44,781 bases of DNA from Pseudomonadota bacterium (GCA_051747405.1 JBNJGC010000001.1:1-44781), one strand, 5' to 3'; positions 1,321 to 40,129 are shown, numbered from the stretch's first letter. Notes: generated by a model from the sequence alone, not told the origin. Made by a program: numbers and translations.

Positions 1321-4300
1321 TCAGTCGCCCCGAGAAGAGGACCACCAACGGTAGCCGAGCGTTCGCAAGGTGCCTGCGTTGACTAAGCGAAGTGGTGCGT
1401 AGGCTTCATCCGTAAGCCGATCGGAAGCTTCGACCAGGTAGCGGATAGCGGCGGAGCGGTCGCCGTTACTCTTCGCATCGGCCGCCTTTGCCATCCAGCG
1501 CTCAGCCTGCTCGAAGGCCGGATCTTTTCGTTCCGGCGCGTGCTCGGTAAACGCGGCCTGGAGCTCGTTGATCGAAACGACCGGCGTGACCGGGACTACC
1601 GTATGGATGGGCTCGCCGTAGGGCTCGTACGCCTCCGGCTCCCCGGTTTCAATGGAGGTGATCAACTCAACGGTATCGTCTGCTGCTGCATCGATCCGAA
1701 CCCAGGCATCAAACACCAGCTGCTGCTCCTCTTCCAGGGAGAACGGCCATTGGAGGCCAGCCTCACTGACGGTCCCGCCGCCAGCTTCCACCACCGTGAC
1801 GCCAGGCGGCAGTGCGACACTCACCCGCCCGCCGGTGGCGATCCCCTCGTTGATAAGTTGCACACGAATCGGCAATACACCACCGGGACGGACGTCATAC
1901 GTTTCGGGGTGCACATGCGCGAGGGCATCCTGCATGAAGCGCTCGATCACGCTGTCACCCGTGGTTGCTGTCTCCGCCAACCAGTCAAAGGCGGTGTAGA
2001 GGGCCTGCCCCTCACCGTAGCGGTGGTCGGTGACGGCAGGCGCTCCCGACCCGAAGCGGGCCACCACCTCCGCACCCTCCGTCTGTACGCGGATGCTGCG
2101 CGATGATGCCGCAAGAACACTCTGTCCCGGCTCGGTGATGTCCGTAAAGGTCACCATGGAGGCATTGACGCTGCCCCGGGCCGCGATGCCGAGCGGCTCG
2201 TCCAGCAGCAGGTTGCGCTGGTCGTGGTCGCCGGCAACGATCAGGCCGGCGCCCCGGTATACCGCCTCGCGCAGTTCTCTCTGGGCAACGTTGTCGAGGC
2301 GCACCTGCTCATTGAGAAGCAGATAGGTCGTATAACCGTCGCTGCGCAGTTCGCGCGTGAAAGCGTCGGCATCCGTCACGAGGGTATACGACCAGCCCCA
2401 TTGCTCCAGCAGGCCTTCAAGGCGCTCCTGCTGAACCGGTACCCCGGCCGCGCCGTTCGGGCCATGCGGGTCTCGCCCGTTCGCGGTGCCGGGCGTCCCG
2501 TCGCCGTCCAGCAGGACCAGCACGCGGCCCCTCGGCCCCTCGCCGACGCTCGCGTCGATGCGGATCGGCGGTTCCAGCAGGCGGAACGGGGCATAGTCCA
2601 GTGTGCGCCACTCACCGTCGATCTGCGCCCTGAGCACACAGGCGTGCATGCCTACCGAAAGCGCATCGGTATCGAAGCTGCTGTGGTAGGCGTCCAGCTC
2701 GCCCGCATCGATGGTCAAGCTGCGTTCGGCATGGATGACGGCGCTCCCGTCGTCAATACCGGTGCTCATGTAGCGGGTCGGAACCTCCGCCGCCATCCCG
2801 GCACCGTCGTTGCTCATTTCGAACGTGCAGGATTGCGGATCCCCTTGATACAACTCATCGTGGGCGACGGCCACCCGTCCGCTCAATGCCAAGTCGAGAC
2901 TCTCACTGACTGTAAAAGCGGTCACACTGGATGCCAGAACCGGCCCGATGCCATCGCGCAGTGTCGCCCTGGCCTGGTATTGCCCTTCCGGCGCGGCATC
3001 CAGCAGCAACTCGTCGAAGGCCAGGCCTTCACCACCGGGCTGCAGCGAGGACAGCGACAGCTCGCTTTGCAACCACTCAGCCCCGTTCGGGCCGGTTACG
3101 GTGAGGGTGACCGTAGGTGTTTCCAGAATCCGGTTGGCGGTGAGGTTCCGCGCCAGGTTCTCCAGTACCACCCGATCCGACGTGTGATAGGTGGCCCGAT
3201 CGGTGGTGAGCCGCAGCCCCGCTGCGGGTTCGCCACCCGTGTCGTGCACGATTTCGAACGGGGCGGCATCCTCCGCCACCGGTTCCCCGTCGGCCCCGAC
3301 CAGCAGCCCACGCAGCCGGTAGGGGCCGGCGAGATAGGTGCCTGTATCCCAGGTTGCAGTCACGGAGAGCTGCTCGCCAGGCGCCAAGATCACGGCATCG
3401 AAGTTGTCGAAGCTGGCGAGGGGATTCCCGGCGGTGTCCTCCACGAGGAGGACGGGCTGGAATTCGCCAAGCAAGGCGCCTTGGTTTTCAAAGTCACCGG
3501 TCAACAGCACGTCGACCGAAGCGCCGTATTGCGACGCATCGGTGGCAACATCGATGGCGCCGAGTTCGGTGCCCACCGGGCGTGAAACCCGGTTGTTCTC
3601 CCGGTTGCACCCGCCGACCGTCTGCGCCGGGTCGACAGTAGCGACCACTTCAGCCACTCCCGGGGGAAGGTCTGCCGACAAGCTGACCTCGACATGGCCG
3701 CTGGCCGTAACGGCCTCCAACGTCTTATTCTCCTGCCACAGCAGGGCGCCGTCGGCACCGAGTCCCTGCAGCCTCAATACCGTACCGATCGGGACATCGC
3801 CGGTGCCGGCGTTGCCGACTAGCAGGCTCATCGTGGCTGGCTGACCCACCCCTCCGTCGGTCACGGTCAGGGCCCCGACCGTCAGGTCCACCACGCGGAC
3901 TTCACGCTGCACCTTGCCGGCGATGCCGGCCCCGTAATCGTCGTAGTTGTCGATAGTCAGCACGAAGCCGCGCTCTCCACCGACCGGCTGCGGGAATACA
4001 ATCTGTTCGAGCAGATAGCGATCAACCCCCGAGCCGACACCAATTGCGTTCAACGTATCGATACCAGCCTCGCGGGCCCTCTCCGATGCCCGGATGGCGT
4101 AAGTGCGGCTCGAGCGACCGTCGGTGGAGACGTCGATCACCTTTATGGCACTTGAGGGAGAGGCGGAGGTAATTTGTGACACCGCCGAACTGATGCAGCT
4201 GTGGATGCTGGTGCCTCCTCCGAGCTTGCGGATGCTGCGGATTTGCTCAGCGACTTGCGCTGCGTTCTCTTCGGTAATGATGGTGGGTGGCAGCTCAACC

Positions 4301-4899
4301 CGTGTCCAACTTGAGAATTGAAGCGCGCTCAGGCGCACCGAGCCGTCGTGGGGCACGATCTCCGGATCCTCGATGGCAGCTGCAGTACCATCCAGTTGAA
4401 GCTGGAACTCGCCCCAGCTCACACTGCCGGAGGCATCCATGCACATCGCCAAATCCAGCGCCACGCTCTCTTCGGGACCGGCGCACTGTCCGGCATCCCC
4501 TGCGTAGTTATTCCCCTCGGAGAGTTCGACGCTGGTTTCGCTGCTGTCGACCCATACTCTAATCGGGGCGTCACGGAACGGCAGCGTCCCTTCGACAGGA
4601 ATGGCAAGGGACGCCTCGGAACCGACCGCGAGGTCGGACGGAAGAGTCCCTGAGCCGAGCCGGAGATCGTTTTCCGCCGAAAAGACACCATCCCCGTCAG
4701 CATCGTAAAACGCGAGCGCTGTGACGGGACCGGTTGCAGCGGCTGTGCCGTCGTTGGCGATCTGAACGGCAACTTCCCCGGAGAGAGAAAGATCCAGGGG
4801 ATCGCTGTTTGCGGCGGTCATATCCAGCGCGGCAACGATCAGGTCGGGTTTCAGTTCACTCACATTCTCCGGTCGCATTCTCAGCGAACCGAGTTGCAA
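1321..4899 (-). CDS. Very large VWA + CARDB-repeat protein; probably the C-terminal 1,192 aa of one ~1,910-aa secreted protein
   Basis: Start is TTG 4899 or ATG 4878, with no signal peptide and no good SD. A MIDAS-like DxSxS (MCMDASGSVS) sits in a VWA/DUF1194-like segment. Several CARDB-like modules are present (KPDLIV...EGNN; DLTVGALTV...GNAGTGDVP; ...NRENN). The C-terminal third resembles a class-I glutamine-amidotransferase-like/ThuA-type fold (RVLVLLDGDG...GAGLIVAGDHD). Same frame as, and contiguous with, ORF 4900..7056. Confidence 0.7.
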   Translation of the reverse strand: MQLGSLRMRPENVSELKPDLIVAALDMTAANSDPLDLSLSGEVAVQIANDGTAAATGPVTALAFYDADGDGVFSAENDLRLGSGTLPSDLAVGSEASLAIPVEGTLPFRDAPIRVWVDSSETSVELSEGNNYAGDAGQCAGPEESVALDLAMCMDASGSVSWGEFQLQLDGTAAAIEDPEIVPHDGSVRLSALQFSSWTRVELPPTIITEENAAQVAEQIRSIRKLGGGTSIHSCISSAVSQITSASPSSAIKVIDVSTDGRSSRTYAIRASERAREAGIDTLNAIGVGSGVDRYLLEQIVFPQPVGGERGFVLTIDNYDDYGAGIAGKVQREVRVVDLTVGALTVTDGGVGQPATMSLLVGNAGTGDVPIGTVLRLQGLGADGALLWQENKTLEAVTASGHVEVSLSADLPPGVAEVVATVDPAQTVGGCNRENNRVSRPVGTELGAIDVATDASQYGASVDVLLTGDFENQGALLGEFQPVLLVEDTAGNPLASFDNFDAVILAPGEQLSVTATWDTGTYLAGPYRLRGLLVGADGEPVAEDAAPFEIVHDTGGEPAAGLRLTTDRATYHTSDRVVLENLARNLTANRILETPTVTLTVTGPNGAEWLQSELSLSSLQPGGEGLAFDELLLDAAPEGQYQARATLRDGIGPVLASSVTAFTVSESLDLALSGRVAVAHDELYQGDPQSCTFEMSNDGAGMAAEVPTRYMSTGIDDGSAVIHAERSLTIDAGELDAYHSSFDTDALSVGMHACVLRAQIDGEWRTLDYAPFRLLEPPIRIDASVGEGPRGRVLVLLDGDGTPGTANGRDPHGPNGAAGVPVQQERLEGLLEQWGWSYTLVTDADAFTRELRSDGYTTYLLLNEQVRLDNVAQRELREAVYRGAGLIVAGDHDQRNLLLDEPLGIAARGSVNASMVTFTDITEPGQSVLAASSRSIRVQTEGAEVVARFGSGAPAVTDHRYGEGQALYTAFDWLAETATTGDSVIERFMQDALAHVHPETYDVRPGGVLPIRVQLINEGIATGGRVSVALPPGVTVVEAGGGTVSEAGLQWPFSLEEEQQLVFDAWVRIDAAADDTVELITSIETGEPEAYEPYGEPIHTVVPVTPVVSINELQAAFTEHAPERKDPAFEQAERWMAKAADAKSNGDRSAAIRYLVEASDRLTDEAYAPLRLVNAGTLRTLGYRWWSSSRGD

Positions 4900-7056
4900 T
4901 TAACTTCCCAGGGTAATCACCAGGCCGAGGTCTACCGGACCGTAGCCATCTTTTTGCAGGTGCAATTCGGCTTCGGTGTCGGTGATATCGTCGACGAGGA
5001 AAGCCCCGCCCGCGTCAGTCACAACGGTGGTGCTGCCACTGGCGTAACTTGCCGTCACGCTCACACCTTCGAGGGGTGATCCGGAGGTTGCATCGATGAC
5101 CGTCCCCGACAGGGAAGCCAGGTCCCGGTACCCGGCGGGGTACAAATCAACGTCACCGAAGTCGAGGAGTATGACTGAAGACACCTCAATGGCAGTCTGC
5201 CAGGGATCGAAGTCGGTCGCGACGATACTCAGTGTCGCCGCGCCGGCAGGCACGTCAGAGAGGATCGCCTCACCTTCGGTAGTGGTGGTTTCGGTTATAA
5301 CCCCAGCGCTGGTCTCCACCGTCACGGTGGCGCCCGCCACCGCCTGACCGGTGGCCGCATCGCGGACAACCACGCGCACCCCACCGGAGGCTTCCGGAGC
5401 GGGTGCTTCCGACGACTGTTCAATGAGCACTGGAGCGAAGCGGATCACCGTTGCGCTATCGGCAGTCGCTTCGCCGCTTACGGGCCAGTACCCGTCCGCC
5501 TCGGCCGTCAGCGTGTAGGTCCCTGTCGACAACCCTTCAATACGGTACGCCCCGGTTGAGTCGGTCGTTGCGTTCCAAGACTTCCCTTCGGCGTCCTGCA
5601 CATTGATAGTCGCACCGGCAAGAGGCGTGGCATCGCTGGCCCGCGTGACGGTGCCTTCCACTGAGACTTGGGTTTGCGAGACCGACAACGCCGGCGAGAA
5701 CAGCGCCATTTGTCCCGCCGTAAGGGAAGGACTGGCCGAGGCTGACCGGAAGCCGGCCTTGGAGGCAACCAGCGTGACCGTGCCGGGGGCAAGGCCTGCC
5801 AACTGGTAACGCCCCTCGGAATCGGTAACGGCTTCTGTTTCCGTGCCGCTGACCCGAACCGTCGCATCCGCCAACCCGGCACCGGTATCGGCCCGCGTGA
5901 CCTGCCCGGTAACAGTCGCAGTCTCTGTGCTCCCCGAGGCCGGCAGCATTTGCAACGCCCCCAAAGAAGCCCGGGTCCCCACCTTGAGTTGAAGGGACGC
6001 CGTCAAGGATGCATACCCCTCAAGGGCGAGTCCCAACTCGTACGTACCGGGCTCCAAATCTTCGAGATGGAACGAACCGGAACTGTCAGTCGCTGTCGAC
6101 CAGGACTGCTCCCCCGTCAGGGTCACTGAGACGCCCACCAAAGGCGCCCCGGTATCACCATCAATGACACTGCCTTCAACGACCCCCAGATCGGCGAACG
6201 GCGCATCACCGGCTGCAAGTGCCCTGAGTGCAAGGGCCGTTACGTAAACGTCCTGTCCCCAGCTACCGTCGGCGTGCTGCCAGCCGAGGAGGCGCTGCCG
6301 GGCCTCATCCAAAGAGCTCTTGTCTTGAAGGGTCGGATAGAGCGCGACAAGGGCTGCAGCCGTCTCCAACGCATTGGCGTTCCAGCCGCCCTCCTCGCCC
6401 TGGTCCGAAAGGAGAAAACTACGCGCCTCTGCGATGAGCGTCCCCACCTCAAGGTGGTGCCGCAGCGGCCAAATGGCACGGAGCACCTGCGCAGTGACAT
6501 AGGCGGATGCCGGCTGTTTCGGGTCCGCCCCCCAACCACCGCCCGGTGCCCGGCGATCGGCCAGAAAGGCCACTGCAGCGGTATATACGCGAGTATCTCC
6601 GTAACCGGAAAGCGACAGGGCTTCCAGGGCCAGGGCCGTATCCATGACGGTGGCGTTGAAGCCTGCGGTTTCACCAAATCCACCATCAAAACCCTGGTTG
6701 GCCGCCAAAACGGAGGTCAGGCTGGTAGACTCACCCCCATCCTGAACAAGCGCAACGATCTGGCGGCTAAGGCCTTCTGTGCTGTGCGCACTCTCTGCCT
6801 GAAGGTATTGCAGCGTAGCGCTAAGTTCGGTGCTCCTCACACGCCCTTGAGCAACGAGTGCCCGAACCGCTTCCGACGAAGACTGGAACGGTGTAGCGGT
6901 ATCGCCTGGAGCGGAAAAGACCCCGCCAGGCTGAAGTCGTGATAGCAACCAGTCGGTGCCGTCGGCTGTGGCCGTACCAACGAACACCAACAGACAGAAA
7001 AGGATGAACAGTCGAACAGGCACGCCAGGTCGTGTGCGGAAGGCGCTCTTTTCCAT
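4900..7056 (-). CDS. Secreted protein: signal peptide, prenyltransferase/terpenoid-cyclase-like repeats, five CarboxypepD_reg-like repeats
   Basis: N-terminal signal (RLFILFCLLVFVGTATA). Four GGW-type repeats (FDGGFGE, PGGGWGAD, EEGGWNAN, HADGSWGQD) are typical of alpha/alpha-toroid prenyltransferase-like folds. Five repeats follow the pattern G-x-V-x-D-x-x-(T/S)G-x-P-L-x-G-(A/V)-x-V...TD-x-x-G-x-(Y/F)...G-x-Y-x-L. Ends with TAA 4900-4902, inside the fifth repeat. Confidence 0.75.
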   Translation of the reverse strand: MEKSAFRTRPGVPVRLFILFCLLVFVGTATADGTDWLLSRLQPGGVFSAPGDTATPFQSSSEAVRALVAQGRVRSTELSATLQYLQAESAHSTEGLSRQIVALVQDGGESTSLTSVLAANQGFDGGFGETAGFNATVMDTALALEALSLSGYGDTRVYTAAVAFLADRRAPGGGWGADPKQPASAYVTAQVLRAIWPLRHHLEVGTLIAEARSFLLSDQGEEGGWNANALETAAALVALYPTLQDKSSLDEARQRLLGWQHADGSWGQDVYVTALALRALAAGDAPFADLGVVEGSVIDGDTGAPLVGVSVTLTGEQSWSTATDSSGSFHLEDLEPGTYELGLALEGYASLTASLQLKVGTRASLGALQMLPASGSTETATVTGQVTRADTGAGLADATVRVSGTETEAVTDSEGRYQLAGLAPGTVTLVASKAGFRSASASPSLTAGQMALFSPALSVSQTQVSVEGTVTRASDATPLAGATINVQDAEGKSWNATTDSTGAYRIEGLSTGTYTLTAEADGYWPVSGEATADSATVIRFAPVLIEQSSEAPAPEASGGVRVVVRDAATGQAVAGATVTVETSAGVITETTTTEGEAILSDVPAGAATLSIVATDFDPWQTAIEVSSVILLDFGDVDLYPAGYRDLASLSGTVIDATSGSPLEGVSVTASYASGSTTVVTDAGGAFLVDDITDTEAELHLQKDGYGPVDLGLVITLGS

Positions 7057-10545: not shown

Positions 10546-10632
10546 GCCGAGGTGGTGAAATTGGTAGACACGCCAGCTTCAGGTGCTGGTGGGGGCAACC
10601 CCGTGGAGGTTCGAGTCCTCTCCTCGGCACCA
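10546..10632 (+). tRNA. tRNA-Leu (anticodon CAG), encoded CCA end
   Basis: 87 nt. Acceptor GCCGAGG/CCTCGGC, anticodon stem CCAGC/GCTGG with loop TTCAGGT (CAG), long variable arm, T-arm GAGG-TTCGAGT-CCTC, discriminator A plus CCA. Confidence 0.95.
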
Positions 10633-10677: not shown

Positions 10678-10758
10678 ATCTCCACGGATCGACGCTATGC
10701 CGTGCGCGCGCAAGCAGGGGGAGGGGTAGCCATAAAGCTCCACGAATGAGATCCCCCA

Positions 10759-11028
10759 TAGTGTAGTGTTTCATACTGATTGGCGCTTTCAGAGGCTCGC
10801 AAATGCCCCAAGACAAGGCGCAGCCCGCAGAGACTGGCCCACCCTTTTCAAGGGGGTGCAACGCAGGATTGGGGCATTTGCGGGCCTCCCTGCGGGCGCG
10901 GCGAGAAGCCGTCATCTGCGGGGCGTTGCGTTGCTTGGAAAGGGCGCGCCATTCCCTGCGCAACGCGCCTTGCAGCTAACGGCTTCTCGTCACGCTGAAA
11001 ACGTCAATCAGTATGAAGCACTACACTA
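10759..11028. mobile_element. 270-bp MITE-like element with 34-bp terminal inverted repeats and nested internal hairpins
   Basis: 10759-10792 (TAGTGTAGTGTTTCATACTGATTGGCGCTTTCAG) versus the reverse complement of 10995-11028 gives 31/34 matches, with the outer 24 bp at 23/24. Internal stems: 10795-10811 with 10869-10885 (16/17), and 10903-10912 with 10979-10988 (10/10). No transposase is present. Confidence 0.45.
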
Positions 11029-11075
11029 GTGGTGACGGCTGGAACGCAGGGCAACCGCATACTTTGTCGTCGCTG

Positions 11076-11171
11076 GTGTAAGCCCTTGATTTAGGGTCGT
11101 CTGCCGCAAGGACGCGGCAGTCGAGCCTCCAGGGAGGGATTCACGGCGTACCGTATATCAAGGGCTTACAC
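11076..11171. repeat. 96-bp palindromic element (15-bp perfect inverted termini)
   Basis: GTGTAAGCCCTTGAT (11076-11090) pairs with ATCAAGGGCTTACAC (11157-11171). An inner hairpin is CTGCCGC-AAGGAC-GCGGCAG (11101-11120). Confidence 0.5.
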
Positions 11172-11234
11172 TAGCTGTACGCGGGGTGTCATATAACTAT
11201 GCGCTCACCCTGGGCTGGAGCGCTATCCTGCGCC

Positions 11235-33257: not shown

Positions 33258-33289
33258 ACGCATTGGCCCCTACACGAGCCAAATAACTC

Positions 33290-33450
33290 ACCGCAAAGAC
33301 GCGAAGACGCAAAGCGATGGAGACAGAGTCGGTGTGCACCCCCGGCAACGGTCTTCGCGAACACGTGGTACCAACTAATCAAAATTGGAAGGCGGTGTGG
33401 CTTTCAAAACCTTTTTCACCATACGCTCTGCGCCTTTGCGTCTCTGCGGT
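33290..33450. repeat. Inverted-repeat element of tandem 8-mers (divergent member of the 37.3/38.8-kb family)
   Basis: ACCGCAAAGACGCGAAGACGCAAAGCG (33290-33316) versus the reverse complement of 33424-33450 gives 23/27 matches, and every mismatch is an A/G transition. It sits between the convergent 3' ends of the NlpC/P60 gene and hemH. Confidence 0.6.
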
Positions 33451-33471
33451 TCACTTCTGGCGACCTGATAG

Positions 33472-35385: not shown

Positions 35386-35940
35386 TTATCCGCTGCGCTG
35401 CACCAGCCTGGAGCCGTTGATCTGAAAGGCCTCGAACGGTTCGCGGCCAAAGCGCATCAACTTGTTGAGGGTCAGCGTCTCGATGCCTTCGAACGCCCCT
35501 TTCTGGATGGAACTGAGCAGCAGCTCGATCTTCAGGCGGTTAGGGGTGTAGTGAGCGGCCAGAGCGGCGGGGCTTCCGCTGCGGCTCGGTCGCACCCGCG
35601 GCATGGTATAGGCGATACACTGCACCTGCTCCACCTGCACGCTGGAGAAGGCCCGCGAGAGGCGCCGCCGCAGCTCACGCCGGGCATAGGCGGCACAAAA
35701 GGTGGCGATCTCGTCGATCAGCTGTAGCAACGCAGGGTCCGCCGCCTCGGGCTGATCACGAAAGAAGTCGAGCGCCGGGTAGTAACCCAGCCCCTGCTCC
35801 ATCACCCAAGGGTCCACCTGTCCGGCCAGATTCTCCCCCAGCACCCAGGGCAGATAACCCACATTGGCCTCCACCACCGTCTCCGGTACGGTGACGGTAA
35901 GGTTTGCGGCAACGGTGACGACCTCTATCTTGGGTGGCAT
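35386..35940 (-). CDS. Hypothetical 184-aa protein, last gene of the MoxR/VWA cluster
   Basis: High third-position GC consistent with coding. No TM segment, signal peptide or motif I can assign. Weak SD. Confidence 0.6.
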   Translation of the reverse strand: MPPKIEVVTVAANLTVTVPETVVEANVGYLPWVLGENLAGQVDPWVMEQGLGYYPALDFFRDQPEAADPALLQLIDEIATFCAAYARRELRRRLSRAFSSVQVEQVQCIAYTMPRVRPSRSGSPAALAAHYTPNRLKIELLLSSIQKGAFEGIETLTLNKLMRFGREPFEAFQINGSRLVQRSG

Positions 35941-35943
35941 TTG

Positions 35944-36081
35944 GGTTCAAAGTTCAAGGTTTATGTTCAGGATGAACGGGCCGCTTTATCACGTCCCTGT
36001 GACCGCGGCACTGATGCATCCGTGCACGGCGTATACCGCGGGCGCAGGGATGCGCAGGAGCGGTGCAAAGTTCAAGGTTTA
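35944..36081. repeat. 20-bp direct repeats flanking an imperfect hairpin
   Basis: GGT(T/G)CAAAGTTCAAGGTTTA occurs at 35944-35963 and 36062-36081 (19/20). The inner inverted repeat 35990-36008 / 36036-36054 matches 15/19. Confidence 0.6.
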
Positions 36082-36129
36082 AGGCGTGCAGATTGGGGTT
36101 CGCAGGCTCACCCCAACCTACAAACTCCG

Positions 36130-37290
36130 TTATCGCCGGCGTGCGCGGCGGCGACGGCGTCGGCCCTGGCTCATGGTCTCCGGGTCACGCCCGCGCAGAC
36201 GGTAGATCGCCTTGCGCAGCGGCAGCGTCACCGGCTCGATCTTCTCGTTCATTACCGTGCCCACGGCATCGGTCTGGCCGAAAATGGGGTTGAGCAGGTA
36301 CTCGTTCACCTGGGCCAGGGTGAGCATGGCGCGGATCTCCGGCTCCAGCTCGGGTACCGCCTGCAGCAGCGTCTGAAGCTGTTCATCCTCCTGCATCAGT
36401 TGCTCCACCAGCGCCTCGATCTCGGCCAGCTCGCGGAAGCCGTCACAGCGGCGTAGCTTGAGAAAGTAGCGACCCAGGGCATTGAACAAAGCGCTGGCCA
36501 CATCCTGATCGGCGGGGTTGCTCAGCACATCCTCGGCGATCTCGAGGAAACTCTGCCCCACTTGCTCCAGCATCAGCAGCAGATGGCGGGCGTACTCATT
36601 CTCCGCCGCGGCAAGCGTTTCCAACGTCTCTCGGTACTGCTCCAGATCCTCGCGCGGGGGTTGCTGCTCGGGCAGGTCGTGGGGCAGGGTTTCGAGAAAA
36701 CCGATGCGGTAGCTCTTCTGGCGTCGCCCGCTCTCCCAGAGCTTCTGTTTCTGTGCCTCGTCGATAAGCCCCGGCTGCAGCACCAGGCGCACGGTGTTGA
36801 GCATATCGCGCGGCTCGGTCTCGAACGGCAGGTGCTCGATGAGGTGTTCGGCCAGCTTCCTGCCCATCTCCCCCGCGACTACCTGCGGCGCCTCCAGCAT
36901 ACGCCGGGCATGTTCGGAATACGGTGCGCACCACCAGGCGCGACGCGCCAGCTCATCGGAGAGGTTGCGGGCGCAGACAACCGCCATCACCGCCTCGGGT
37001 TCGCCCAGCTTAAGCAGGCGATCCAACTGGTCGTTGTCAATTTGGCCCATGCGGGTCCAGCGGCGCAGGAACACCGGGTAGCCGCCGGGCGAGTCGAGCA
37101 CCGCGCTGGAGAGCATGGCGCGCACCGCCTGCAGGTACTGATCACTGCGTCCGGTGGGGTTGAGGGGAAACTTCATCTCCTCCTCACCCTTCAGGCCGTA
37201 TACGGTCATGCTGTTCTCGTCGATGCGCACCGCCTCGGCGTTGGCGATCAATACATTCAACCGCAGCGCATCTTCACTACTCAGTTCCAC
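36130..37290 (-). CDS. Hypothetical 386-aa helical protein with a C-terminal poly-arginine tail
   Basis: GTG start at 37290 with GAGG 7 nt upstream. Leu/Glu/Ala/Arg-rich, with no TM segment. Ends ...SQGRRRRRRARRR. Confidence 0.7.
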   Translation of the reverse strand: MELSSEDALRLNVLIANAEAVRIDENSMTVYGLKGEEEMKFPLNPTGRSDQYLQAVRAMLSSAVLDSPGGYPVFLRRWTRMGQIDNDQLDRLLKLGEPEAVMAVVCARNLSDELARRAWWCAPYSEHARRMLEAPQVVAGEMGRKLAEHLIEHLPFETEPRDMLNTVRLVLQPGLIDEAQKQKLWESGRRQKSYRIGFLETLPHDLPEQQPPREDLEQYRETLETLAAAENEYARHLLLMLEQVGQSFLEIAEDVLSNPADQDVASALFNALGRYFLKLRRCDGFRELAEIEALVEQLMQEDEQLQTLLQAVPELEPEIRAMLTLAQVNEYLLNPIFGQTDAVGTVMNEKIEPVTLPLRKAIYRLRGRDPETMSQGRRRRRRARRR

Positions 37291-37315
37291 TGTTAAACCT
37301 CGTTATAAAACATTC

Positions 37316-37437
37316 TCAACGCAGAGGACGCGGAGGTCGCTGAGAATGAAAAGCACGTCCTCTTCGTCTGCAATATGTCACGTTCCTACATGAACAAACC
37401 ATAAATACCTCTGCGTCCTCCGCGTCCTCTGCGTTGA
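37316..37437. repeat. Inverted-repeat element: 21-bp perfect GC-rich arms built of tandem 9-mers around an AT-richer 80-bp core
   Basis: TCAACGCAGAGGACGCGGAGG (37316-37336) is the exact reverse complement of 37417-37437. The arms consist of GCAGAGGAC/GCGGAGGAC-type 9-mers. The element fills the VWA / 386-aa gene spacer. Confidence 0.8.
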
Positions 37438-37442
37438 ATCAT

Positions 37443-38756
37443 TCAGTTCAATTGAATCCTTTGGCCCCAGGGGATTTGTGCCTTGCCCTTGACGAGCCAT
37501 ACGGTGGGGTACGGCGGTTCGCTCTCGGGGAAGTGGCCCTGGGCGTCGGTGAAGTAGACCAGTACGTCGGGCCTGCGGTTCTCGCGCTGCACCCAGTCGA
37601 ACACCGGACGGAAGTCGGTGCTGCCGCCGCCGCTAAACTCTTGCGGCAGGTCGAACTCTTCCCACGGCTCGTAGGTCCAGCCATCGCCGATGAGGCCGGA
37701 GTCGCAGGCCAGCAGCGTGACGCGGGCGCGGATCTGCCCCTTCAGGGCATTCACCTCGGAGACGAATTCGGTCATCTCCTTGTCGGTGACCGAGCCGCTG
37801 GTGTCCAGTGCCACTACGACATCCAGCTCATGGCTCTTGAGGCTGGGCATGATGTAGTCGCCCTCGCGCCGGGAGGGACGCGAGTAGTTGTAGTCGTCGC
37901 GGGCGGTGGCGTTGAGGTAACGCGCCAGCAGCATACGCCACGGCAGTTGCGGCTGCAGCAGGTGATCGATGATGCGCCGTAGCGGCCCGCTGAGCTTGCC
38001 CGCCTGCATCGCCTGTTGCGCGGCGCCGGCCATGCGCTGCTGCCACTGCACCGAGAGGTTATCCATCTCCTCTTTGGAGAGCGGCGGCGGCTGTTTGGCC
38101 CCCTCTCCGCTACCATCGCCGTCCTTGGGCTGCTCCTGTTCCTGCTGGCCCTCGCCCGGCTCCTGTTTGGTTTTGTCGGGCTTCTCCGCATCGCCACGCC
38201 CGCCCTTGTTGTCGGGGCTCTTCTTCTGCTGCTGATCGCCGCCCTCTGAACCTTTCTCGGTACTGTCGTGCTGACCGCCGGCACCCTGTCGTCCGCCGCC
38301 GCTCTGGTTGTCCTCGTCGTAGACGTGGTCATCATGCGGGGTGAGGTTCTCGTGCTCATCGAGACAGGGGTAGATCTCCTCGGCGGTCATCTCCTCGAAC
38401 TGCGGCAGGTAGATGGCATCCGGGCAGGGCTTGAGACCGTCGGCGATGAGCAGCGGATTGATGGCCAGATCACAGGCGAGATCCCAGCGATGCTTGTCAC
38501 GGTGCGAACGACGGGCGAAGTGCGACAGTGCACAGTGCAGCGCCTCATGGGCGAGCACGAACTGCGCCTGCTCCACCGACAAACCGTCGATATAATCGGC
38601 GCTGTAATAGAAAGCCCGCGCATCGGTGGCCACCGTCTTGCACCAATCGGAATCAGCCTCAATCATCGGCAGACGCAACACCAGCGCACCGAGGAACGGC
38701 TTGTCCAGAATCAGCTTGGTGCGCGCGGCACTCAGTTTCGTTTCACAGTCTGACAT
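37443..38756 (-). CDS. VWA-domain protein with N-terminal HExxH metallopeptidase-like domain (DUF2201 / COG3864 type, MoxR partner)
   Basis: LAHEALHCALSH (HExxH), followed by a roughly 90-aa acidic Gly/Gln/Lys-rich linker. The C-terminal VWA has the MIDAS motif VVALDTSGS and ...GGGSTDF.... Confidence 0.85.
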   Translation of the reverse strand: MSDCETKLSAARTKLILDKPFLGALVLRLPMIEADSDWCKTVATDARAFYYSADYIDGLSVEQAQFVLAHEALHCALSHFARRSHRDKHRWDLACDLAINPLLIADGLKPCPDAIYLPQFEEMTAEEIYPCLDEHENLTPHDDHVYDEDNQSGGGRQGAGGQHDSTEKGSEGGDQQQKKSPDNKGGRGDAEKPDKTKQEPGEGQQEQEQPKDGDGSGEGAKQPPPLSKEEMDNLSVQWQQRMAGAAQQAMQAGKLSGPLRRIIDHLLQPQLPWRMLLARYLNATARDDYNYSRPSRREGDYIMPSLKSHELDVVVALDTSGSVTDKEMTEFVSEVNALKGQIRARVTLLACDSGLIGDGWTYEPWEEFDLPQEFSGGGSTDFRPVFDWVQRENRRPDVLVYFTDAQGHFPESEPPYPTVWLVKGKAQIPWGQRIQLN

Positions 38757-38769
38757 AGGTATGATTTTT

Positions 38770-38900
38770 CAACGCAGAGGACGCAGAGTGCGCGGAGGAA
38801 AAGAAGGTGATTGCATAACGGCCACTCATCACCTCGCTTGCTAGTGAGAAACGAAAAAAACGCATCACAAACCTCTGCGTCCTCCGCGTCCTCTGCGTTG
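38770..38900. repeat. Second copy of the tandem-9-mer inverted-repeat element
   Basis: CAACGCAGAGGACGC (38770-38784) is the exact reverse complement of 38886-38900. More imperfect complementarity follows (GCGGAGG/CCTCCGC). The right arm CCTCTGCGTCCTCCGCGTCCTCTGCGTTG is identical to that of the 37.4-kb copy. Confidence 0.7.
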
Positions 38901-38905
38901 CATGA

Positions 38906-39952
38906 TCAGTACAACATTACCTCGGCGACGGCCTGGGCCCACGGCGAGAATTCTGGTACGGCGAAGATATCCTGGCCGATGGCCCGATGCAGGTCGGAGA
39001 CCAGCATCACGCCCATCTCGCGCTCGCGGAAGCGGCCGGCGAACTCAAGGATCGCACCGTAGACCTCGTTGGCGTTCTGCGGGTCTTCGTTCTTGGCGCG
39101 CAGGGCACGCCCCACCAGGGCGGAGGCGACGGCGTACTGCAGGTCGATCTCCTTGGGCAGCGGCACCTGCTCGCGGCGGATGATTGCATCCAGGTCCGGC
39201 AGGTTGTCGAGATTGTCGACGAAGGCGCCCAGCTCGATGCCGGCGGCGGGGCCGACACAGGCCTGCAGGGTATTGACCAGCAGGCTGCCGCTGTCGGCGA
39301 ACTTCTGCAGCGCCCTGTGTGCGAACTCCCAGGAGCGCGGCGAGGGGAAGGCGACCGGGTTGTGCGCCGGGTCAAAATCGAACAGCAGTTCGGGACGGAA
39401 GCGCAGGAAGGCGATCACCCGCTCGTCGATGCCGTTGGCGTAGGCCCAGCTGACCCAGTCGTCCAGGTGCGTATCCACCTCGAAGTGGGCGAAGCGGTTG
39501 GCCAGCGGCGCCGGCATGGTGTAGGTGACACCGCGGTCGCCCTGGCGATTACCGGCGGCGAAGATGGCCCACCCCTCCGGCACCTGGTACTCCCCCAGAC
39601 GGCGGTCGAGGATGAGCTGGTAGGCGGCGGCGGAGACACTCGGCGGTGCGGAGGTGACCTCGTCGAGGAACAGAATCCCCTCGGCACCGTGGCGCTCGGT
39701 ATCGGGCAGCATCGCCGGCACCGCCCACTCCACATGCTCGCCGCTGCGAAACGGAATGCCGCGCAGGTCGGAGGGTTCCATCTGCGACAGGCGGATATCC
39801 ACCACCGGCACACCGTGGCGCCCGCCGACCTGTTGCACCATCTGGGACTTGCCCACGCCGGGCGGACCCCACAGCATCACCGGGGTATGGTGCCCCTCGC
39901 GGGTGCTGGTAAATTCACGCTCAAGAACATTCGCTATCTGCGCAGGACGCAT
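38906..39952 (-). CDS. MoxR-class AAA+ ATPase (AAA_5)
   Basis: Walker A LWGPPGVGKS, Walker B GILFLDEV, and AAGNRQGDRGVTYTMPAPLANRF (sensor/Arg-finger region typical of MoxR/CbbQ-like ATPases). 348 aa. Confidence 0.9.
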   Translation of the reverse strand: MRPAQIANVLEREFTSTREGHHTPVMLWGPPGVGKSQMVQQVGGRHGVPVVDIRLSQMEPSDLRGIPFRSGEHVEWAVPAMLPDTERHGAEGILFLDEVTSAPPSVSAAAYQLILDRRLGEYQVPEGWAIFAAGNRQGDRGVTYTMPAPLANRFAHFEVDTHLDDWVSWAYANGIDERVIAFLRFRPELLFDFDPAHNPVAFPSPRSWEFAHRALQKFADSGSLLVNTLQACVGPAAGIELGAFVDNLDNLPDLDAIIRREQVPLPKEIDLQYAVASALVGRALRAKNEDPQNANEVYGAILEFAGRFREREMGVMLVSDLHRAIGQDIFAVPEFSPWAQAVAEVMLY

Positions 39953-40129
39953 GCACGCTCACCTTCTTTGTTGTGTGTCGGGCTAGAGCCCGATCAACAT
40001 CGTTCATCACTATCATGTAGGTCGGACTATACGCCGACAGACTGTTTGCGCCGGACTTCAATCAGCGGTACCGGGCGAAAAAGCTTAGCATTATTGTCAG
40101 GCTTTAGACAAAACGGCTTCGAATTCTAA

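Follow-up and report, generated by a model that had tools for sequence, protein, structure and literature searches.

What does a MoxR-class AAA+ ATPase do when its partner, a von Willebrand factor A (VWA) protein, also carries a metallopeptidase motif, and when two further genes follow the pair on the same strand? The question is raised by a locus in a 44,781-nucleotide (nt) stretch of DNA from a bacterium of the Pseudomonadota (GCA_051747405.1, JBNJGC010000001.1:1-44781), here called the window, whose most likely source is a Thiohalomonadaceae bacterium. Four co-directional open reading frames (ORFs) lie on its minus strand, encoding in order the MoxR ATPase, the VWA protein, a protein of 386 amino acids (aa), and a 184-aa protein that we call p184; the intercistronic gaps are exactly 149, 152, and 189 bp (gaps 1 to 3, in the same order). 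An earlier annotation made without database searches (the sequence-only reading) had named this cluster the best candidate for an undescribed system, and what it reported of the layout, namely the four genes, the gap lengths, and every quoted motif, including the C-terminal RRRRRRARRR of the third protein, is present in the sequence and its translations. The label itself was overstated, because the third gene is dsrS; what does appear to be undescribed is the combination, in which parts of a known kind, a MoxR/VWA chaperone pair, are joined to DsrS and p184. In bacteria other than the purple sulfur bacteria, dsrS is usually found in a tight operon with MoxR/VWA and a small partner.

The third protein and the DsrS family

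Relatives of the 386-aa protein number in the thousands, and several of them are named "sulfur reduction protein DsrS" in NCBI and UniRef. It is 53 to 76% identical to proteins so named (76% to P0046) and 55% identical (E = 4.5e-122) to DsrS of Sedimenticola selenatireducens DSM 17993 (locus L023), which is in turn 99% identical to another Sedimenticola protein bearing the name (P0387). Judged by sequence, it belongs to the DsrS family. The dsrABEFHCMKLJOPNRS locus of Allochromatium vinosum ends with dsrS, whose function, in the words of the 2011 genome paper, "is still not resolved" (PMC3368242); we found no later paper that resolves it. The sequence-only reading had held that neither the MoxR/VWA subtype nor its two downstream partners had an experimentally defined role. 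That holds for the MoxR/VWA subtype, for which our literature search found none, but not for the third gene, which has been studied genetically (PMC3368242). The DsrS of the window resembles that of A. vinosum in family (by names and annotations), in its similar size, in having no Pfam domain, and in coming from a sulfur-oxidizer host; it differs in that its gene is the third of a MoxR-VWA-DsrS-p184 operon and is not in a dsr operon.

The AlphaFold model of DsrS (pLDDT 89) consists of a three-stranded N-terminal β-unit, an α-solenoid of helical repeats, and a disordered tail, so that the protein is not all-helical, as had been supposed. Comparison of the model with the PDB gave as best matches generic HEAT, ARM, and TPR proteins, all with E > 0.1 and a TM-score of < 0.4. 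The tail that ends in RRRRRRARRR (36130-36165) is limited to the closest Thiohalomonadaceae relatives; some Sulfuricella have a short PRRRR tail, and the majority of DsrS proteins terminate at ...LRG; by comparison with these relatives, the poly-Arg tail is a recent, lineage-specific addition and not a feature of the family. Near the N terminus of DsrS, E6 and D7 are invariant. No invariant cysteine is present in DsrS or in p184, which argues for a scaffold and not a sulfur carrier.

Linkage of the four genes across genomes

A scan with a DsrS profile, using one genome per species, gave 542 confirmed relatives. The best 80 loci, from genomes of sulfur oxidizers, were kept for neighborhood counts, with neighbors called by profile hidden Markov models; upstream counts refer to the 65 loci, and downstream counts to the 73 loci, that had enough flank. 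In 41 of 65 loci, dsrS is immediately preceded on its own strand by MoxR and VWA genes, and in 34 of 73 it is immediately followed by p184. The cluster is therefore a real unit, as had been claimed, and all four genes occur together in a distant metagenomic locus (L083; identities to the window proteins of 70% for MoxR, 52% for VWA, 38% for DsrS, and 33% for p184), where two extra small genes are inserted. The linkage is common but not constant: both sets of partners were found at 20 loci, MoxR/VWA only at 18, p184 only at 10, and neither at 12, and as partners of dsrS the two sets vary independently of each other. Across the linked loci conservation falls in the order MoxR (72 to 95% identity), VWA (55 to 92%), DsrS (47 to 82%), and p184 (30 to 75%).

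The MoxR-VWA-DsrS arrangement was found among Gammaproteobacteria in Thiohalomonadaceae, Sedimenticola, Acidiferrobacterales, and Granulosicoccaceae, and among Betaproteobacteria in Sulfuricella and Nitrosomonadales; in a Sulfurifustaceae locus (L062) the VWA gene stands directly before dsrS. The named hosts (Thiohalomonas, Sedimenticola, Thiogranum, Thiohalobacter, Sulfuricella, and Sulfurifustaceae) all belong to lineages of sulfur oxidizers. Compact loci have gaps of 5 to 25 bp, and in about 10 loci the DsrS stop overlaps the p184 start (by -1 or -4). This pattern is typical of translationally coupled subunits, and the ancestral operon was tight and probably coupled.

No dsr genes were recognized beside dsrS in the 80 loci, in which not every neighbor was annotated. 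This agrees with published annotations, in which dsrS of Sulfurifustis and Sulfuricaulis lies "outside of the gene cluster" (PMC5024460) and that of Thioalkalivibrio "elsewhere in the genome" (PMC5328954), and we conclude that a place in the dsr operon is an arrangement of the Chromatiaceae rather than a trait of the family.

Other neighbors recur. Fifteen loci with a Thiogranum-like gene order (from L037-L077, e.g., L040, L047, and L049) have the gene for sirohaem synthase CysG immediately after dsrS/p184, and in L083 (1421-8095) cysG comes next after the four genes and precedes an iscR-iscS-iscA-hscB operon. A glutaredoxin gene recurs downstream of dsrS/p184 in other lineages, those in which MoxR/VWA are not adjacent, and a 145-aa Sel1-repeat protein is encoded recurrently upstream, before DsrS or before MoxR. 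Together, the CysG, glutaredoxin, isc, and Sel1 neighbors may hint at a link to cofactor supply for DsrAB.

Chromosomal setting

The window contains the core genes rnr, purA, hisZ, hflKC, hflX, mutL, amiB, and lon. The local order, hslR-trx-nudix, the cluster, and then adk-hemH, is kept across Thiohalomonadaceae, and the GC content is uniform, that of the cluster being like that of the rest of the window. The locus is part of the core chromosome, and the best explanation is that it is a vertically inherited accessory operon of sulfur-oxidizing Proteobacteria, linked to DsrS and probably to the Dsr pathway. This setting bears on the suggestion, hinted at in the sequence-only reading, of a role in conflict. 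A MoxR-vWA ternary system for anti-phage defense or conflict would fit two subthreshold matches (bpMoxR, 16.3 bits with a cutoff of 27; EAD2, 18.6 bits with a cutoff of 23.8) and the occurrence of homologues of the pair in phages. However, PADLOC returned only weak P-loop noise (E of at least 2e-4), the cluster has no effector, β-propeller, or VMAP partner, and the locus keeps its position between housekeeping genes across the family, with native GC content. The suggestion is scarcely credible on this evidence, and we have abandoned it.

Adjacency to hemH or hemL was considered as a tetrapyrrole link and dropped, since it is explained by a conserved (htpG-)adk-hemH housekeeping array, the gene order of E. 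coli. A gene for HtpG follows p184 in two loci (L036 and L042).

The ATPase and its zincin-VWA partner

The MoxR translation contains Walker A (GPPGVGKS) and Walker B (ILFLDEV) motifs and matches AAA_5, the Pfam model for dynein, midasin, and MoxR, at 35.8 bits (cutoff, 22). We assign it to the MoxR class because its nearest solved relatives are midasin AAA modules, NorQ, and CbbQ; a helix 2 insert in the AAA+ core is the feature that defines the MoxR clade (PMC7159879). The 437-aa protein scores far above the Pfam cutoffs for both DUF2201_N (158 bits) and DUF2201 (83.9 bits), and both HEALH and DTSGS are found in its translation. H70, E71, H74, and H79, together with D318, S320, G321, S322, and D404 of the metal ion-dependent adhesion site (MIDAS), are invariant in 23 sequences, 2 phage homologues included; the acidic linker between the zincin and VWA domains is not conserved. 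Sequence comparison with solved PDB chains, any NorD or CbbO chains included, detected no similarity to this protein. The earlier assignments of the two genes as MoxR and HExxH-VWA (DUF2201) are thus borne out by Pfam, by the nearest solved relatives, and by the invariant motifs, and the best explanation of the second protein is a MoxR cochaperone with an intact predicted zincin HExxH domain. A search for literature on the function of DUF2201 or COG3864 found nothing relevant, and none was found that links DsrS to MoxR or von Willebrand proteins.

In MoxR-vWA systems generally, of which NorQD, CbbQO, CoxDE, RavA-ViaA, and the chelatases are examples, the vWA protein captures a substrate peptide and the ATPase transmits a conformational change (PMC7159879). 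The window pair shares with NorQ/NorD, CbbQ/CbbO, CoxD/CoxE, and RavA/ViaA an AAA_5 ATPase beside a MIDAS-bearing VWA cochaperone; it differs from them in the N-terminal zincin HExxH of the VWA protein and in having two further dedicated partners, DsrS and p184.

Closer counterparts of the pair are found in phages. MoxR matches the phage family phrog_1297 over its full length (4.8e-91) and, weakly, the CobS-like phage family phrog_249; the VWA protein matches phrog_1314 over its full length (2.2e-88). Homologues at 26 to 29% identity occur in 690 phage records, most of them from jumbo phages. Two phage loci were inspected, and in both the ATPase gene precedes the VWA gene: the two are neighbors in Escherichia phage Ecwhy_1, whereas a single gene separates them in a Vibrio phage. 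The phage genes beside the pair showed no relation to the DsrS and p184 profiles. Iyer et al. (2021, PMC7824862) read the jumbo-phage MoxR and metallopeptidase-vWA proteins as a chaperone-cochaperone pair and proposed for it a role in the assembly of virions that includes peptidolytic processing. The window pair thus resembles the pair of group 2.2 jumbo phages in comprising the same two families at full length, with the ATPase upstream, and is unlike it in being cellular, highly conserved, and tied to DsrS and p184; it offers the first cellular, pathway-linked context for a metallopeptidase-VWA/MoxR pair that is widespread in jumbo phages. Phage homologues in phrog_1314 (H2, H6, H13, and others; L081 and L082) are widely annotated "HNH endonuclease" or "homing endonuclease", and this labeling looks like an annotation error copied between records.

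The same observations raise the possibility of an ATP-dependent processing protease, in which MoxR would present or unfold a VWA-held substrate for cleavage by the zincin domain; the substrate could be DsrS or an unrelated protein, and DsrS would be substrate or regulator. The HExxH motif and the third histidine, H79, are invariant from sulfur oxidizers to jumbo phages, the zincin region weakly matches the minimal metallopeptidase (minigluzincin) MJ1213 (E = 0.002), and peptidolytic processing is what has been proposed for the phage pair (PMC7824862). On the other hand, no cleavage substrate is evident; DsrS is well folded, strongly conserved, and 386 aa long, unlike a rapidly diverging precursor; and the characterized MoxR/VWA pairs are remodelers, not proteases (PMC7159879). 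We consider a processing protease unlikely.

The small partner p184

Sixteen residues of p184 are invariant in 43 sequences. A profile search of 1.84 billion representatives returned only 172 clusters, all of stand-alone proteins of about 180 aa, and no wider family. The AlphaFold model (pLDDT 95) is an α/β sandwich, for which searches of the PDB and of viral structures (BFVD) gave nothing convincing, the matches being generic or poor, with TM-scores of < 0.4.

A proposed function in the reverse Dsr pathway

We propose that MoxR and VWA act as a chaperone-cochaperone module which, by means of DsrS and p184, would assemble, activate, or repair some component of the reverse Dsr pathway, and we give this proposal an even chance. 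The MIDAS site of the VWA protein would capture an acidic peptide of the client or of an adaptor, and the MoxR hexamer would remodel the bound protein with ATP; DsrS, as an α-solenoid scaffold, would together with p184 form the specificity adaptor that directs this activity to a reverse-Dsr component. The most plausible target would be the sirohaem/[4Fe-4S] sulfite reductase DsrAB, in its assembly, activation, or repair, with the zincin domain perhaps contributing a processing step. DsrS is given the role of adaptor and scaffold because of its tight, conserved linkage to the pair, its solenoid fold, and the fact that in purple sulfur bacteria dsrS is part of the dsr locus. What the data show are the identities of the genes, their linkage, and the conservation of the catalytic motifs; we infer a physical complex, its client, and the direction of its action. 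A bolder form, that the four proteins are a machine dedicated to the maturation and repair of the reverse dissimilatory sulfite reductase system and represent a new class of metalloenzyme accessory factor, is one that we put forward only tentatively and think rather doubtful; if true, this would be a maturation machine on a par with NorQD (nitric oxide reductase) and CbbQO (Rubisco), DsrS would gain a biochemical role, and p184 would be a new fold-level family. In either form, the linkage makes the function of DsrS testable, through the hypothesis that a Dsr component is assembled or repaired at the expense of ATP.

Several points weigh against the proposal. MoxR/VWA are away from dsrS in 24 of the 65 loci, and DsrS occurs alone, without partners, in Ectothiorhodospiraceae BW-2; the partnership is either dispensable or kept from separate loci. 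No dsr genes were seen in the 44.8-kb window, and the adjacency of CysG is found mostly in loci without adjacent MoxR/VWA. Homology to the founding A. vinosum DsrS (Alvin_1265) is presumed from database names and published annotations, the homologue search seeded from the Sedimenticola DsrS having reached no Chromatiaceae. The chaperone model does not account for the peptidase domain. Finally, deletion of dsrS in A. vinosum reportedly only slowed sulfur oxidation, and the phenotype is said to have been discussed as post-transcriptional control.

This last point leads to a different view of DsrS, as a post-transcriptional regulator of dsr expression, modulated by MoxR/VWA and binding RNA through its Arg-rich tail. 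Post-transcriptional control was reportedly proposed by Grimm, Dobler and Dahl in 2010. The window DsrS does end in ten basic residues. The tail is missing, however, from most members of the family, and the fold is a protein-interaction solenoid without a recognizable RNA-binding domain. Even though dsrS of A. vinosum has its own promoter (PMC3368242), we give little credence to a regulator of this kind.

A chelatase-like machine for sirohaem or another tetrapyrrole, with DsrS as a substrate-holding third subunit that would deliver sirohaem to DsrAB or insert it there, also has to be weighed. The Mg- and Co-chelatases (BchI/BchD/BchH and CobS/CobT/CobN) likewise combine an AAA+ motor, a VWA subunit with an acidic linker, and a third subunit; the weak match of MoxR to the CobS-like phage family and the cysG gene downstream of dsrS/p184 in the 15 loci and in L083, there beside the isc operon, point the same way. 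Against this, no similarity of DsrS to either BchH or CobN was seen, and the cluster encodes no homologue of either; the N-terminal domain of the VWA protein is peptidase-like and not AAA-like, its HExxH domain having no counterpart in chelatases; cysG adjacency is mostly seen where MoxR/VWA are absent from the locus; and that of hemH belongs to the housekeeping array. The similarity to chelatases is one of design only, and a chelatase-like role is very unlikely. The features of the locus are collected in Table 1.

Table 1. Genes of the MoxR-VWA-DsrS-p184 cluster and repeat elements in and near it (window coordinates)
Feature	Position	Strand	Basis
MoxR-class AAA+ ATPase, 348 aa	38906-39952	-	Pfam AAA_5 (9.7e-9); phrog_1297; NorQ/CbbQ/midasin relatives
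Zincin-like DUF2201_N metallopeptidase, acidic linker, and DUF2201 VWA/MIDAS protein, 437 aa	37443-38756	-	Pfam (4.8e-46, 1.3e-23); phrog_1314
DsrS-family protein, 386 aa	36130-37290	-	Identity to NCBI/UniRef-named DsrS; AlphaFold model
p184, 184 aa	35386-35940	-	119 close homologues; downstream of dsrS in 34/73 loci
MITE/REP-like element 1, gap 1	38766-38901	.	Inverted repeat; fold -66.1 kcal/mol, z = -6.8
Element 2, same class, gap 2	37313-37438	.	Inverted repeat, 93% complementary; fold -68.8 kcal/mol, z = -8.3
Short REP-like hairpin GTAGGTTGGGGTGAGCCTGCGAACCCCAATCTGC, gap 3	36088-36121	-	RNA fold
GC-rich hairpin insert, 103 nt (35963-36065), gap 3	35948-36080, including flanks	-	Bracketed by 15-nt direct repeat AAACCTTGAACTTTG
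Third element of the gap-1/2 class, outside the operon	33289-33452	.	nlpC/P60-hemH spacer; ends CACCGCAAAGACGCGAAGACGCAAAG; fold z = -4.8

Hairpin elements in the spacers

Each of the three gaps was said in the sequence-only reading to be filled by a hairpin-forming repeat. Strong folds are indeed present in all three (z = -6.8, -8.3, and -4.1 for gaps 1 to 3 relative to shuffled sequence, with 0 of 200 shuffles as stable), but the elements of gap 3 differ from those of gaps 1 and 2. The gap 1 and gap 2 elements are about 130 nt long and have at one end an identical 29-mer, CAACGCAGAGGACGCGGAGGACGCAGAGG (38872-38900 and 37408-37436), of which there are 3 copies in the window and 0.00 expected. 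Elements of this class measure 110 to 190 nt, and their ends are tandem heptamers, CGC[AG][AG]AG plus 1 to 3 nt. Gap 3 holds a short hairpin, GTAGGTTGGGGTGAGC...GCGAACCCCA, and the 103-nt hairpin, whose bracketing direct repeat is found at exactly two places in the window (0.03 expected). Clear flanking direct repeats are seen only at this insert, and no transposase was found in the window. The motif class of the short hairpin is also found after the p184 homologue in L007.

Filled, long gaps 1 and 2 are found in a subset of Thiohalomonadaceae; in L001, L004, L005, L006, L010, and L035 the MoxR-VWA site measures only 7 to 20 bp. The nearest relative (L152; DsrS 89% identical) has both gaps filled at the same sites (L152:4355-4497 and L152:5815-6000) and a DsrS-p184 gap of only 22 bp; the gap 3 insert is hence specific to the window lineage. 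The arms of the L152 elements have changed in step, from CGCAGAG/CTCTGCG in the window to CACAGAG/CTCTGTG, with pairing kept but without conservation of the interior. Each genome has its own variant, common to all its copies, which suggests concerted evolution of the repeat family (or replacement of elements).

Elements of the same class are also found in other spacers of L011, L017, L021, L025, L050, and L079. Beyond these loci, an exact 23-nt element end, CAACGCAGAGGACGCGGAGGACG, was found in 66 metagenome contigs (L086-L151) from soils, peat, wetlands, and sediments, with GC contents of 39 to 72%; in about half of them an inverted partner lies 70 to 220 nt away, and none of the 66 carries the cluster. 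On these matches, the tandem-heptamer class seems to have spread across unrelated bacteria. Like MITEs (miniature inverted-repeat transposable elements) and REP (repetitive extragenic palindromic) elements, the spacers of this class are 110 to 190 nt long, noncoding, and intergenic, with terminal inverted repeats and strong hairpins, present or absent among close relatives and in many copies across genomes. They are unlike them in their tandem-heptamer ends and in matching no cognate transposase or named family; an Rfam search of the spacers matched no family.

Two origins had been offered for the spacers, segmental processing or stabilization of the mRNA and the independent insertion of elements into what had been a compact operon. 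In favor of hairpins that are RNA elements selected to process or stabilize segments of the operon transcript, gaps 1 and 2 are occupied throughout a subclade and arm differences in the nearest relative keep the pairing; a simple scan for terminator and promoter consensus on the coding strand also found no site in the three gaps, the sole promoter-like site lying downstream of p184, before adk. However, relatives that are equally close have gaps of 7 to 21 bp, the same class also occupies unrelated spacers, both in the window and in other loci, the 23-nt end is identical in the 66 unrelated contigs with their range of GC content, and the sharing of one variant by both copies of a genome fits concerted evolution, with Rfam giving no match. 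Selection for transcript processing thus appears rather improbable. The spacers are generic MITE/REP-like insertions into an ancestrally compact operon, because there are empty sites in relatives, copies elsewhere in the window, and the end sequence in unrelated metagenomes. Of the earlier account, independent insertion stands, but the hairpins are not special to the operon; a secondary effect of the spacers on mRNA stability may exist. The case is a caution that striking structured gaps in an operon can be plain, generic mobile hairpins.

Other features of the window

Two further inverted-repeat elements were noted between tRNA-Leu(CAG) (10546-10632) and purA. The first, of about 285 bp (10752-11035), has 41-nt inverted ends that are 85% complementary, and it is followed at 11072-11175 by a second inverted repeat pair, of 26 nt; both are probably MITE-like elements of other families. 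At 1321-7056, on the minus strand, are two very large ORFs, of 1192 aa, with CARDB, VWA, and DUF1194 domains, and then of 718 aa, the latter built of carboxypeptidase-regulatory-like repeats. The two are probably surface or secreted proteins, unrelated to the cluster.

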